From IMG/VR virus record IMGVR_UViG_2925914267_000005, positions 1 through 20,458 of that record: a stretch of DNA of 20,458 nucleotides. The stretch is one strand, 5' to 3'. The notes under the pieces were generated by a model. That model made no database searches and was not told the origin of the DNA. It worked only from the letters and a program-made list of their open reading frames with translations. The translations under genes and the position numbers were made by a program. Shown one piece after another: positions 91 through 19,128 of this stretch; positions within the stretch are counted from its first letter, which is position 1, and each line of letters starts with the position of its first letter. The DNA is from a virus. Its lineage: Duplodnaviria; Heunggongvirae; Uroviricota; Caudoviricetes.

Positions 91-260
91 TTAGTATAAA
101 AAAGCTGAATGAGAAACGTAAAATGATATAAATATCAATATATTAAATTAGATTTTGCATAAAAAACAGACTACATAATACTGTAAAACACAACATATGC
201 AGTCACTATGAATCAACTACTTAGATAGCATTAGTGACCTACAACAGAGCATTAGCGCAA
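91..260 (-). other. attR: Prophage attR (P-O-B' junction): 15-bp lambda att core at 91-105 plus lambda attP P arm (about 106-260)
   Basis: Reverse complement of 91-105 is GCTTTTTTATACTAA, followed outward by CTTGAGCGAAACGGG (attB B' side as recalled); reverse complement of 106-260 reads like the lambda P arm (…AGGTCACTAAT…GTTGATTCATAGTGACTGCATATGTTGTGTTTTACAGTATTATG…). Confidence 0.85.
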
Positions 261-418
261 GGTGATTTTTGTCTTCTTGCGCTAATTTTTTGCTAATCCC
301 ACCATTTCTCAAAGATCACAAAGGGGTATGGTTGGTCTGGATGGCTCACCTGATGCAGAAGTATGATTTTGTAGTGACATCATTACCTTAATAGCGAACA
401 TTTCCTTGCCGCCTCGCA

Positions 419-446
419 TTGACGCGAGGTCGCACGGAAGTATAAT
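419..446 (+). promoter_or_regulatory. Putative sigma70 promoter for the acyltransferase gene: -35 TTGACG (419-424), 16-bp spacer, -10 TATAAT (441-446); 6-bp inverted repeat cctcgc/gcgagg (412-417 and 424-429) flanks the -35
   Basis: Hexamers read directly; positioned about 30 bp upstream of the ATG at 479. Confidence 0.5.
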
Positions 447-478
447 TCGTAGTCTTTCTACGTAGTTTAGGGAACAAT

Positions 479-1561
479 ATGTCGTCTAATAATCGACTCC
501 ATTATCTTGATGGTATTCGTGGCTGGGCCGCAACTATTGTTGTCTTCGGGCACACCATGGGGGGCGTGATTGCAATTGACGCACCTAATTTTGTAAATCA
601 TCAATGGATGAGCTTTTTTACAAATGCTCATCTTGCTGTTTTGGTATTTTTTGTTTTATCAGGCTACGTCCTGAGCGTTAGCCAAATCTACTCATCAAAA
701 CGTAATACTGCGGTATCCACCGTTGCAAGATTATTCAGATTGGCTCTTCCGATTCTGTTCGTAAGCCTTGTCGCATATATCATGATGAGGTTAAACCTAT
801 TTTTCAATGTTCAAGCCGCTACTAATGACATATCGAAATCGTGGTTAGGGACATTTTTCAGGTTTGAGCCGTCACTACCTGGTGTATTTTCCTTTTCATT
901 TTTCGATGTATTTTTCGCTTATGATACTCCGACATCATACAACTCTTCATTATGGACCATGCCTATAGAAATGGCTGGGTCAATTCTAATTTATTCATAC
1001 ATAGCTATATTCAGAACTGAAAAATTCAACTGGATAATTTCTTCCATTTTAATAGTTTATTTCTATTTTTATAGCCCATTCATGTTCTGCTTTATGGTTG
1101 GGTATGTTCTGGCTGAACTGAAAAAAATTAACAACCTATACCTGAGTGGTAGAAATGAAATACCGTTGATATTTATTTTCTTTGCCATGATCTATCTGGA
1201 TACATACCATAGGCCGGTTGATGAGATTATTCAGGCGCTTGAGGCGGTAGTATTTGTTGTTGTAATATCTTACAGCAAAACTTTATCATCGCTGTTCTCA
1301 TCAAGAGCATCAAGATTTATGGGCAGGATTTCGTTTTCTCTATATCTAGTTCAGATACTGGTTATTTGCTCATGGTCTTCGTACATGAAGATTTTACTAT
1401 CAAACTCTGGTATTAATATAAATATTGCAGCCTCAATAAACCTCATATCATCCATGGCTTTGTGCATATTAACAGCAAGAGCCATGACTCCTATTGATGA
1501 ATTTAGTGTTAAACACTCCAAAACCATTGCTTTTAAATTATTAAATTTATGCTCTAGGTAA
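479..1561 (+). CDS. Integral-membrane acyltransferase family 3 protein, probable O-antigen/LPS O-acetyltransferase (prophage moron)
   Basis: 360-aa ORF; N-terminal motif LDGIRGWAATIVVFGHT typical of acyltransferase-3 family; multiple hydrophobic segments; markedly AT-rich relative to neighbours. Confidence 0.75.
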   Translation: MSSNNRLHYLDGIRGWAATIVVFGHTMGGVIAIDAPNFVNHQWMSFFTNAHLAVLVFFVLSGYVLSVSQIYSSKRNTAVSTVARLFRLALPILFVSLVAYIMMRLNLFFNVQAATNDISKSWLGTFFRFEPSLPGVFSFSFFDVFFAYDTPTSYNSSLWTMPIEMAGSILIYSYIAIFRTEKFNWIISSILIVYFYFYSPFMFCFMVGYVLAELKKINNLYLSGRNEIPLIFIFFAMIYLDTYHRPVDEIIQALEAVVFVVVISYSKTLSSLFSSRASRFMGRISFSLYLVQILVICSWSSYMKILLSNSGININIAASINLISSMALCILTARAMTPIDEFSVKHSKTIAFKLLNLCSR

Positions 1562-2174
1562 CCAAGTCGTCAAGATGCACTTTAAGCCCCATAAGGGGCT
1601 TTCCATTCGCTCAGGTCTATCGAATCCACCATCCTGGCATACTAAAATGTTAATCGATATGCCATCAATCACTTCTTTCTCTTCATCCATTTCTGCCACG
1701 TAAATTGCGGCAATCGTATGGACGCTTTTCCTCAATTGGTTCATTATTTTTCCGATATGTCACACCCCATATTTAGATTTCAACGTTATTAGATCACTCG
1801 CAAACTGTTCCTTCAGCATTGGATATTTAGCTTGCTAATGCTGCATGATTGCTTCCATCAGTTAAAGATGCAGAACTAAAAGCTAACGTAAGAAATGAAA
1901 CATTCTCTTGATATGCTTTACTTAAGCTTTTCAGCTCTTTTTTGTATAGATAAGCATTTATTGTTGATTCTGAAATAATTTTATACTCCAGCTACTGACA
2001 GAATTTACTATTTGATGAATTGTGTTTATCTCCTAATGAGTGCTTAACATTTTAATTCATTACAATTTCCTTATATTCAAGGTATTTTTCAAGATCTTGC
2101 TCACAACGGAATATTGATACTAATTGACTTTCATCATTAGTTGAAAGTTGGATGTATAGATTCATCAATAGTCC

Positions 2175-17689: not shown

Positions 17690-17695
17690 TCATCA

Positions 17696-17718
17696 AAGGA
17701 GCTTCGGCTCCTTTTTTG
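17696..17718 (+). terminator. Strong intrinsic terminator (7-bp stem aaggagc/gctcctt, UUCG tetraloop, T6)
   Basis: Read directly; lies between the AntA-like gene and xis. Confidence 0.7.
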
Positions 17719-17773
17719 TTGGAGAAAATCAACCACTGCTCGCTCCCTTGCGAGTAATTGCGGAGACTTTGCG

Positions 17774-17992
17774 ATGTACTTGACACTTCAGGAGTGGAAC
17801 GCACGCCAGCGACGCCCAAGAAGCCTTGAAACAGTTCGTCGATGGGTACGCGAGTGCAGGATATTCCCTCCTCCGGTTAAGGATGGAAGAGAGTATCTGT
17901 TCCACGAATCAGCGGTAAAGGTTGACTTAAATCGACCAGTAACAGGTAGCCTTTTGAAGAGGATCAGAAATGGGAAGAAGGCGAAGTCATGA
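17774..17992 (+). CDS. xis: Lambda excisionase
   Basis: 72-aa ORF MYLTLQEWNARQRRPRSLETVRRWVRECRIFPPPVKDGREYLFHESAVKVDLNRPVTGSLLKRIRNGKKAKS identical to recalled lambda Xis; overlaps int start. Confidence 0.95.
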   Translation: MYLTLQEWNARQRRPRSLETVRRWVRECRIFPPPVKDGREYLFHESAVKVDLNRPVTGSLLKRIRNGKKAKS

Positions 17993-19040
17993 GCGCCGGG
18001 ATTTACCCCCTAACCTTTATATAAGAAACAATGGATATTACTGCTACAGGGACCCAAGGACGGGTAAAGAGTTTGGATTAGGCAGAGACAGGAGGATAGC
18101 AATTACTGAAGCAATACAGGCAAACATTGAGTTATTTTCAGGACACAAACACAAGCCTCTGACATCGAGAATCAACAGTGATAATTCTGTTACGTTACAT
18201 TCATGGCTTGATCGCTACGAAAAAATACTCGCCAGCAGAGGAATCAAGCAGAAGACACTCATAAATTACATGAGCAAAATTAAAGCAATAAGGAGGGGTC
18301 TGCCTGATGCTCCACTTGAAGACATCACCACAAAAGAAATTGCGACAATGCTCAATGGATACATAGACGAGGGCAAGGCGGCGTCAGCCAAGTTAATCAG
18401 ATCAACACTGAGCGATGCATTCCGAGAGGCGATAGCTGAAGGCCATATAACAATAAACCCTGTCGCTGCCACTCGCGCAGCAAAATCAGAGGTAAGGAGA
18501 TCAAGACTTACGGCTGACGAATACCTGAAAATTTATCAAGCAGCAGAATCATCACCATGTTGGCTCAGACTTGCAATGGAACTGGCTGTTGTTACCGGGC
18601 AGCGAGTTGGTGATTTATGCGAAATGAAGTGGTCTGATATCGTAGATGGATATCTTTATGTCGAGCAAAGCAAAACAGGCGTAAAAATTGCCATCCCTAC
18701 AACATTGCATGTTGATGCTCTCGGGATATCAATGAAGGAAACACTTGATAAATGCAAAGAGATTCTTGGCGGAGAAACCATAATTGCATCTACTCGTCGT
18801 GAACCGCTTTCATCCGGCACTGTATCAAGGTATTTTATGCGCGCACGAAAAGCATCAGGTCTTTCCTTCGAAGGGGATCCGCCTACCTTTCACGAGTTGC
18901 GCAGTTTGTCTGCAAGACTCTATGAGAAGCAGATAAGCGATAAGTTTGCTCAACATCTTCTCGGGCATAAGTCGGACACCATGGCATCACAGTATCGTGA
19001 TGACAGAGGCAGGGAGTGGGACAAAATTGAAATCAAATAA
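17970..19040 (+). CDS. int: Lambda integrase (tyrosine recombinase)
   Basis: 356-aa ORF MGRRRSHERRDLPPNLYIRNNGYYCYRDPRTGKEFGLGRDRRIAITEAIQANIELFSGHKHKPL… near-identical to recalled lambda Int. Confidence 0.97.
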   Translation: MGRRRSHERRDLPPNLYIRNNGYYCYRDPRTGKEFGLGRDRRIAITEAIQANIELFSGHKHKPLTSRINSDNSVTLHSWLDRYEKILASRGIKQKTLINYMSKIKAIRRGLPDAPLEDITTKEIATMLNGYIDEGKAASAKLIRSTLSDAFREAIAEGHITINPVAATRAAKSEVRRSRLTADEYLKIYQAAESSPCWLRLAMELAVVTGQRVGDLCEMKWSDIVDGYLYVEQSKTGVKIAIPTTLHVDALGISMKETLDKCKEILGGETIIASTRREPLSSGTVSRYFMRARKASGLSFEGDPPTFHELRSLSARLYEKQISDKFAQHLLGHKSDTMASQYRDDRGREWDKIEIK

Positions 19041-19128
19041 TGATTTTATTTTGACTGATAGTGACCTGTTCGTTGCAACAAATTGATAAGCAATGCTTTT
19101 TTATAATGCCAACTTAGTATAAAAAAGC
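19041..19128 (-). other. attL: Prophage attL (B-O-P' junction): lambda attP P' arm (19041-19113) and 15-bp core (19114-19128)
   Basis: Reverse complement reads TGAAGCCTGCTTTTTTATACTAAGTTGGCATTATAAAAAAGCATTGCTTATCAATTTGTTGCAACGAACAGGTCACTATCAGTCAAAATAAAATCATTA, matching the lambda core and P' arm as recalled. Confidence 0.9.

Follow-up and report, generated by a model that had tools for sequence, protein, structure and literature searches.

Defective prophages truncated by insertion sequences (ISs) are a well-known kind of element at the phage lambda attachment site (att-lambda) of Escherichia coli, and similar remnants are already known at this site. The lambdaB prophage and the lambdaCr prophage of strain Crooks are listed in Table 2 of PMC3032704, and O-antigen-modifying gtr genes beside att between ybhB and ybhC have been reported (PMC10304059). 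More generally, the genes that incomplete prophages tend to lose first are those for replication, packaging and lysis, and tail-fibre, transposase and integrase genes are enriched in them (PMC7744054). The subject of this report is a prophage remnant contained in a window of 20,458 nucleotides (nt), the whole of IMG/VR virus record IMGVR_UViG_2925914267_000005, to which all window positions refer. Bounded by two lambda-type att cores and lying between ybhB and ybhC, the element is 19,038 bp long. It is very probably a recently crippled mosaic lambdoid prophage in which one IS600-linked internal deletion of about 30 kb left the two ends.

At the same attB, between ybhC and ybhB, E. coli B (REL606/BL21) carries the remnant lambda*B, the lambdaB of PMC3032704. 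Several features are shared with the element in the window: the 15-bp cores at the two junctions are identical, lambda-type int-xis borders ybhC (99.1% nt identity over window 17747-20458), acyltransferase-family genes, in this case two, border ybhB, and the genes for immunity and replication and most of those for the virion are missing. However, lambda*B is 12,105 bp long, keeps an Rz1-like gene, terminase subunits, a partial portal and a tail-fibre assembly gene, and has neither a Red block nor baseplate genes. Its interior shares next to nothing with the window beyond a 106-bp stretch, and in REL606 no IS is annotated in it.

Compared with lambda itself (NC_001416), the element is alike in the attP core and arms, Int, Xis, the 3ʹ part of ral, and cIII-kil-gam-bet-exo with part of ea22 (97-98% nt identity; 97.2% over window 10078-13318). 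These parts, att/int/xis, the end of ral and the segment from cIII to ea22, are the only lambda-like ones, and no similarity to lambda is found in 293-7509, 9020-10077 or 13319-17746. Where the window has 293-7509, lambda has the b region, J and stf, and where the window has a TolA-like gene, lambda has ea10. The virion fragment belongs to another tail type, and the element is therefore derived from a mosaic lambdoid phage, not from a shortened lambda. A remnant of lambda itself is ruled out by the lack of lambda-like late-gene or b-region DNA beside the P arm (293-7509). An initial annotation made from the sequence had called the element a defective lambdoid remnant; it is indeed defective and bounded by lambda-type att sites, but to regard it as a shortened lambda is imprecise, given the different tail type.

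Integration at att-lambda

The window contains exactly two copies of the 15-bp core TTAGTATAAAAAAGC, which is the lambda core GCTTTTTTATACTAA in reverse complement; both are on the plus strand (91-105 and 19114-19128), against 0 copies expected by chance. Because the bases flanking the two copies differ, the repeat is exactly 15 bp. Window 87-292, comprising the core and P arm, is 97.1% identical to lambda 27537-27742; the P arm has 5 mismatches in 187 nt relative to lambda 27537-27723, and both of its arm-type Int sites, CAGTCACTATG and ATTAGTGACCT, are intact. At the other end, window 17747-19128 (core, Pʹ arm, int and xis) is 98.0% identical to lambda 27724-29105, and 19041-19113 is the Pʹ arm, the sequence fitting that of the familiar attP. 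The identical cores with lambda P and Pʹ arms described in the initial annotation are thus borne out by these two alignments (97.1% and 98.0%).

Joining window 1-105 to 19129-19263 rebuilds an attB region of 240 bp that is identical at 240 of 240 positions to uninterrupted ybhB-ybhC sites, which supports the proposed extent of 19,038 bp between the cores. Since attB is rebuilt at 100% from the joined flanks, insertion was precise. The 240-bp region is contiguous in 3489 of 5426 complete E. coli genomes (64%), and att-lambda therefore appears to be occupied or altered in about one-third of finished E. coli genomes.

The window runs in reverse of the usual gal-bio map, so that the ybhC (gal) side with Pʹ and int is attL and the ybhB (bio) side with the P arm is attR. 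Int is identical to lambda Int at 350 of 356 residues and contains all catalytic residues (R212, K235, H308, R311, H333 and Y342); Xis matches lambda Xis at 71 of 72 residues. The cores, the restored attB, the arms and the sequences of Int and Xis all point to lambda-type integration at attB-lambda. With att sites, Int and Xis all intact in sequence, the element could probably be made to excise by functions supplied in trans. In this strain, attB-lambda is split into attL and attR, which bears on lambda-based integration tools.

A different arrangement is seen in E. coli Z1323CEC0013 (L001 11220-13700), in which int is followed directly by an att-like arm and then by tail-fibre and baseplate genes. 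This arm is 84.6% identical to window 87-292 and has no exact lambda core; the vegetative (circular-map) order suggests a tandem lysogen or a prophage integrated via another site.

The missing block and the IS600 junction

An intact prophage of comparable organization is present at att-lambda in strain FDAARGOS_1288 (NZ_CP070007.1), where it measures 45,914 bp core to core. From ybhB, its order is att, gtrABC, tail-fibre genes, baseplate, anti-repressor/Arc, SLT protein, tube, sheath-like protein, neck, head, portal, terminase, Rha, lysis, tRNAs, Q, nin, DnaB-type helicase, replication, cII, cro, repressor, sieB, ral, recombination genes, xis, int, att and ybhC. Site, cores, gene order and the att-adjacent cargo slot are those of the window element, the baseplate block being 93.6% and int-xis-ybhC 98.0% identical. 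Unlike the window element, this prophage is intact, carries gtrA/gtrB/gtrC in the place of the acyltransferase gene, has a RecT-type recombination module instead of lambda Red, and contains no IS. On this genome, window 7510 corresponds to L024 11565 and window 8774 to L025 13793. The 29,705 bp between them hold all modules missing from the window as one contiguous block, and therefore a single event explains their loss; the alignment to prophages at the same site that the initial annotation had proposed thus maps the deletion. Phage DNA in the window amounts to about 16.46 kb (19,038 minus 1264, 1310 and 3 bp), and together with the 29.7 kb this comes to about 46 kb, as in the intact relative.

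By Pfam inventory, repressor, cro, N, replication, Q, lysis, terminase and head genes are absent from the window, and none of its genes is Pfam-annotated with a lytic-cycle function (repressor/cro, replication, Q, lysis, terminase, portal, capsid, tail tube or sheath). This agrees with the initial annotation, which had reported the lack of cI, cro, N, O, P, Q, lysis, terminase and capsid genes and the retention of int, xis, the Red/kil/cIII block and a tail-fibre/baseplate fragment, all of which Pfam, PHROG and the lambda alignment recover. We infer that the remnant cannot replicate, lyse cells or form particles and that it confers no immunity. A satellite or phage-inducible chromosomal island is ruled out, as replication and packaging genes are lacking and what is present lines up with the two ends of a full-size prophage. 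A tailocin is also ruled out: no sheath, tube or tape-measure gene is found in the window inventory.

The border between the two ends is exact. Baseplate-type homology, and with it homology to every intact relative, ends at window 7510, lambdoid early-left homology starts at 8774, and the space between is filled by a complete IS600 (TGAGGTAGCC...CACCTCA, with terminal inverted repeats TGAGG...CCTCA). The flanking triplets, ccg and ggg, show no target-site duplication. An IS3-family element that lacks a duplication and joins non-adjacent segments is the usual sign of an IS-associated deletion, and such junctions arise by intramolecular transposition or by recombination between two IS copies. 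Here the IS is complete, with its inverted repeats, no duplication is present, and the flanks are not adjacent in the intact relative. A second IS3-family element, resembling IS629/IS1203 (TGAACCGCCCCGG...CCGGGGCGGTTCA), is a simple insertion: it is flanked by the 3-bp duplication ACA (14004-14006 and 15317-15319), and its empty site in GCA_001912195.1 (L012) and CP170291.1 (L020) shows the corresponding 3-bp overlap. A 3-bp overlap also marks the IS3 insertion of GCA_974498845.1 (L007) as a simple insertion with duplication. The initial annotation mentioned neither IS3-family element, nor the truncated ral (8774-8857), the stub of a 271-amino-acid (aa) gene (7421-7509) or the lack of lambda similarity in 293-7509.

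The two arms can be traced in relatives. GCA_974498845.1 is 100% identical over window 1-7510 and then runs on into the remaining tail module, and GCA_001912195.1 is 100% identical over 8774-14006 and 15317-20458, lacks the IS629-like element, and continues upstream into a full ral, N and an S24 repressor. The entire window consequently consists of segments 100% identical to these two relatives plus two ISs. Because no substitution separates about 18 kb from these relatives, the deletion is very recent.

A second remnant of the same prophage is present in CP170291.1 (L010/L020). It is 100% identical in the shared parts and occupies the same site, and its junction is likewise formed by an IS3-family element with no target-site duplication (gat versus aac). 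However, the deletion is different: an IS629-like element connects window 5254 with the final 14 nt of N, leaving 15,725 bp in which ral is intact, four baseplate genes are lost and the 266-aa accessory gene that carries an IS in the window is IS-free. The deletions are independent, because each remnant keeps DNA that is absent from the other, and the CP170291.1 junction therefore shows that IS-bounded internal deletions recur in this prophage lineage. Among the lambdoid prophages of enterohaemorrhagic E. coli (EHEC), that of O26 strain 97-3250 (L028 4010-5273) is an example in which an IS600 lacking a duplication (acc/gtg) also joins non-adjacent prophage segments, and the immunity region is gone. 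In this case, the prophage is another lambdoid one at another site, and the deletion, from the 5ʹ part of the replication gene P to the 3ʹ part of sieB with stubs left on both sides, is much smaller. The element thus illustrates how IS600- and IS629-type elements quickly disarm prophages in IS-rich E. coli lineages.

On this evidence, the ancestor would have been a mosaic lambdoid temperate phage of about 46 kb, in which lambda-type att/int/xis and an early-left (Red) arm resembling that of lambda were joined to a tail/baseplate region of non-lambda type, with an O-antigen-type acyltransferase gene beside att as cargo. Int would have integrated it at attB-lambda, between ybhB and ybhC. A single IS600-linked deletion of about 30 kb, extending from within the 271-aa tail-module gene to within ral, would then have removed the other tail genes together with the head, terminase and lysis genes, Q, nin, the replication genes, cII/cro/repressor, pL and N. 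Either intramolecular transposition, producing an adjacent deletion, or recombination between two copies of IS600 may have been the mechanism, a single IS600 being left at the junction in both cases. The IS629-like element would have inserted separately into an accessory gene. In a text search of PMC7430833, no explicit wording on IS629 adjacent deletions was found.

Several points weigh against this reconstruction. Neither the junction scans nor the BLAST searches returned an intermediate, that is, an intact prophage with IS600 at either breakpoint, and no single assembly was recovered in which an intact prophage carries both 100%-identical ends; the 5-Mb contig of GCA_974498845.1 encodes no identical Int. 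The ancestor is pieced together from two relatives (L007 and L012) and CP170291.1, statements on expression derive from consensus scans and knowledge of lambda regulation, and the source genome is represented here by the window. No record among 5426 complete E. coli genomes and 50,697 phage records holds at least 80% of the window by whole-window megablast, exact scans for the left and right junctions gave 0 matches in viral contigs and species-representative genome contigs, and BLAST with the two junctions found no complete E. coli genome with both.

Failure of either junction to match other public sequences searched would also be expected if an intact prophage had received two IS600 insertions and an assembler had collapsed the copies and dropped the 30 kb between them. 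An IS lacking a target-site duplication is a further expected product of collapse through a repeat. Such an assembly artefact is very improbable, however, given that two full-length ISs stand within continuous sequence, as is typical of a resolved assembly, and that comparable real remnants exist in the finished chromosome CP170291.1 and in E. coli B.

The distribution of the closest intact matches raises another alternative, in which recombination or deletion in a tandem or double lysogen at att-lambda brought together arms from different phages. The matches of the two arms lie in different assemblies (L007 and L012), the L007 genome lacks an identical Int, and the int-att-tail-fibre contiguity of Z1323CEC0013 is as expected in a tandem arrangement. 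However, CP170291.1 has both arms, each 100% identical, around a different internal junction, which places both in one shared ancestor, and FDAARGOS_1288 joins the same tail type to lambda int/att in one 45.9-kb prophage. A composite of two prophages is accordingly very unlikely, and a single deletion within one prophage is the preferred explanation.

Retained genes, expression and selection

The gene adjacent to the P arm encodes a predicted acyltransferase and occupies the position of gtrABC in the complete prophage of FDAARGOS_1288. It lies in an island of low GC content (0.34-0.39), and a consensus scan places a sigma-70-like promoter (11 of 12 consensus positions) at 419-446, 33 nt upstream of its start. 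The product has the traits expected of a phage O-antigen O-acetyltransferase, namely an Acyl_transf_3 membrane domain, an att-adjacent gene and a promoter-like site, and is a candidate for such an enzyme acting in lysogenic conversion. No tie to Sf6 Oac or another characterised O-acetylase was obtained: the best tblastn match among phages has 28% identity over half of the protein, and no NCBIfam model matched. Given the promoter-like site and the low-GC island, this is likely the one gene of the element that is still expressed, and it could affect serotype or phage susceptibility.

The acyltransferase gene and the C-terminal part of the tail-fibre gene (window 160-2926) are portable, recurring with 99.3% identity on a prophage with a Mu-like tail at another chromosomal site (L008 9682-12448). 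The whole baseplate-type module also occurs at that other site, with 99.8% identity (L006 9682-17032). Similarity there begins at window 160, and the core-proximal att arm (window 106-159) is not shared. Linkage of acyltransferase and tail-fibre genes is usual where conversion genes that modify the O antigen are paired with receptor-binding domains.

Red, kil, cIII, xis and int are probably silent. With pL, N and cII gone, these genes are left without their native expression signals, and by analogy with lambda regulation, the element would probably be locked in. No promoter-like site was found in 8600-10400 by consensus scan. Two strong terminator-like hairpins (8846-8877 and 8992-9023) lie 3ʹ of the truncated ral, between IS600 and the TolA-like, cIII, kil and Red genes, and with N missing, they would probably block read-through from the IS. 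From lambda biology, a surviving deletion of the repressor would also have to take pL, because kil and the early-left genes would otherwise be constitutive. This constraint is plausible and fits both independent deletions, in the window and in CP170291.1, each of which ends downstream of pL and removes or destroys N.

The initial annotation had argued that the retained set is unlikely to be random and that the element may be maintained for its cargo. These inferences are not supported. Any single internal deletion keeps both ends, and end retention is therefore not evidence of selection; the missing modules form one block, in whose place a single IS600 stands. Neither is there a sign of maintenance in the retained DNA, which is 100% identical to relatives that have the adjoining phage genes, leaving no substitutions to analyse, and in which an IS interrupts one gene. 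Absence of many phage modules thus need not mean selective retention of the rest, as one IS-marked deletion explains the pattern here.

A domesticated cargo island, in which the host keeps a subset of genes because the acyltransferase, Red functions or accessory genes are beneficial, has nevertheless some points in its favour. Two independent IS-bounded deletions, in the window and in CP170291.1, both preserve the end with the acyltransferase and tail-fibre genes as well as the end with Red and int, and the 12.1-kb remnant of E. coli B also keeps acyltransferase genes and int-xis. A promoter-like site of its own precedes the acyltransferase gene, and in incomplete prophages at large, enrichment extends to tail-fibre and integrase genes (PMC7744054). 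Yet geometry alone predicts the pattern, as a deletion reaching past att would strike ybhB/bioA or ybhC, and the identity to relatives provides no divergence from which constraint could be measured. The retained set also includes an IS-split gene, a truncated ral and baseplate genes, which serve no purpose when the other virion components are missing, and the Red block lacks pL and N. Moreover, most sampled carriers of the exact acyltransferase gene retain tail-module genes that extend at least 10 kb past the breakpoint, and the cargo slot varies among relatives (gtrABC or serine acetyltransferase). Shaping of the retained set by selection is, on balance, improbable. We hold it equally improbable that the recurrent IS-bounded reductions (19.0 kb and 15.7 kb) reflect host-level selection that strips the lethal lytic core and keeps the expressed acyltransferase and perhaps the Int/Xis module. 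If it were so, the remnant would be a selected serotype-conversion island, with an excisable module perhaps mobilised or rescued by superinfecting lambda-att phages.

Feature inventory and minor observations

The features of the window are collected below.

Table 1. Features of the 20,458-nt window, in order of position
Feature	Position	Strand	Evidence or remark
Host ybhB-att intergenic DNA, Bʹ side of attB	1-90		100% identical to GCA_974498845.1 (L007) and CP170291.1 (L010), with ybhB (PBP domain) ending directly upstream
att core, bio-side junction, attR (reverse complement here)	91-105	+	Exact lambda 15-bp core
Lambda-type P arm with arm-type Int sites	106-292		Alignment to lambda
Acyltransferase-3 family membrane protein, 360 aa, att-adjacent cargo	479-1561	+	PF01757, E=1.2e-22, residues 8-333; PHROG 3333 "O-acetyltransferase", E=1.3e-23
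Tail fibre gene, 384 aa	2175-3329	-	PHROG tail-fibre families, E down to 4e-55
Baseplate block, six genes	3332-7424	-	Pfam and PHROG; 100% identical to GCA_974498845.1 (L007)
DUF2612 wedge	3332-3970	-	Pfam/PHROG
Baseplate_J	3981-5210	-	Pfam/PHROG
Sheath-initiator/gp25-like	5207-5566	-	Pfam/PHROG
230-aa protein	5563-6255	-	Gene of the baseplate block
Hub	6248-7201	-	Pfam/PHROG
Plug, Pam3_gp18-like	7122-7424	-	Pfam/PHROG
3ʹ stub (89 nt) of 271-aa tail-module gene; left deletion breakpoint	7421-7509	-	Full length in L002-L006 (locus 16943-17758, corresponding to window 7421 and beyond)
IS600, 1264 bp, deletion junction	7510-8773	+	99.8% identical to annotated IS600; orfA 7574-7876, orfB 7912-8730
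ral 3ʹ remnant, last 84 nt; right deletion breakpoint	8774-8857	+	Window 8774 = GCA_001912195.1 (L012) 2118, inside ral (L012 2001-2201)
"TolA-like" early-left gene, 322 aa, unknown function	9034-10002	+	Gene call in L012/L020; PHROG 1376
cIII	10027-10197	+	Pfam Lambda_CIII in 100%-identical CP170291.1 (L020)
kil	10166-10309	+	Pfam Lambda_Kil in 100%-identical CP170291.1 (L020)
gam	10384-10680	+	Pfam Gam in 100%-identical CP170291.1 (L020)
bet	10686-11471	+	Pfam RecT in 100%-identical CP170291.1 (L020)
exo	11468-12148	+	Pfam YqaJ in 100%-identical CP170291.1 (L020)
Small early-left accessory genes (DUF1317, DUF1382, orf61-like, TraR/DksA zinc finger, Ea22-like)	12145-13471	+	
dATP/dGTP pyrophosphohydrolase-DUF551 gene, 266 aa, IS-split	13468-15581	+	Pieces 13468-14006 and 15317-15581; whole in L012 (6812-7612)
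IS629/IS1203-like IS3-family element, 1310 bp, simple insertion	14007-15316	+	Ends given in the text
DUF4222	15648-15890	+	Pfam
Split anti-repressor-like open reading frames	16033-16212 and 16206-16814	+	PHROG 1726
AntA/P22_AR_C protein	17066-17689	+	Pfam
xis	17774-17992	+	71/72 versus lambda Xis
int	17970-19040	+	350/356 versus lambda Int
Lambda Pʹ arm	19041-19113		Part of the 98.0% match to lambda 27724-29105
att core, gal-side junction, attL (reverse complement here)	19114-19128	+	Exact core match
Host gene ybhC	19175-20458	+	Annotated ybhC in all E. coli matches

Within the baseplate block, the plug and hub genes overlap by 80 nt (7122-7201), which is unusually long for a simple start/stop overlap. 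The overlap is also called in most relatives (L002, L004-L006, L009 and L011), and the N-terminus of the hub is called shorter in L003 and L007. The nearest isolated phages to the baseplate J protein are Vibrio phage IKEMa6-1 (73.5% aa identity) and Edwardsiella phages Edno5 and GF-2 (67-68%); no E. coli phage in the phage collection exceeds 60% aa identity. In the parental phage type, a lambdoid early region is coupled to a tail that bears a baseplate, along with an Arc/anti-repressor region and an SLT protein. This type is common as an E. coli prophage (L023 and L024) and has no close isolated representative in the phage collection.

On the right side, the region of the ral remnant is 98% identical to the lambda ral region. 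The open reading frames (ORFs) of 59 aa and 202 aa at 16033-16814 jointly span the PHROG 1726 anti-repressor family, at positions 1-55 and 69-264, and look like a frameshifted anti-repressor gene. This split predates the deletion, because it is also called in L013 and L019, in both of which the early region reaches a repressor gene. A PADLOC scan of the cargo and accessory ORFs gave no significant defence system, a borderline hit (E ~1e-3) on the 59-aa ORF being disregarded, and a tRNA scan of the window found none.

The IS629-like element is 99.7% identical to copies on plasmids of enterotoxigenic E. coli (ETEC), including H10407, which hints at an ETEC-like host background. By look-up of the 195-aa fragment that this insertion creates, the only public contig sharing this insertion is LRKM01000263.1 of GCA_001912615.1 (L026). 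This contig is internally rearranged, running from window 10888-11217 to 8803-8839 and then to 10616-14472, an order that reflects either draft misassembly or further rearrangement in that strain.

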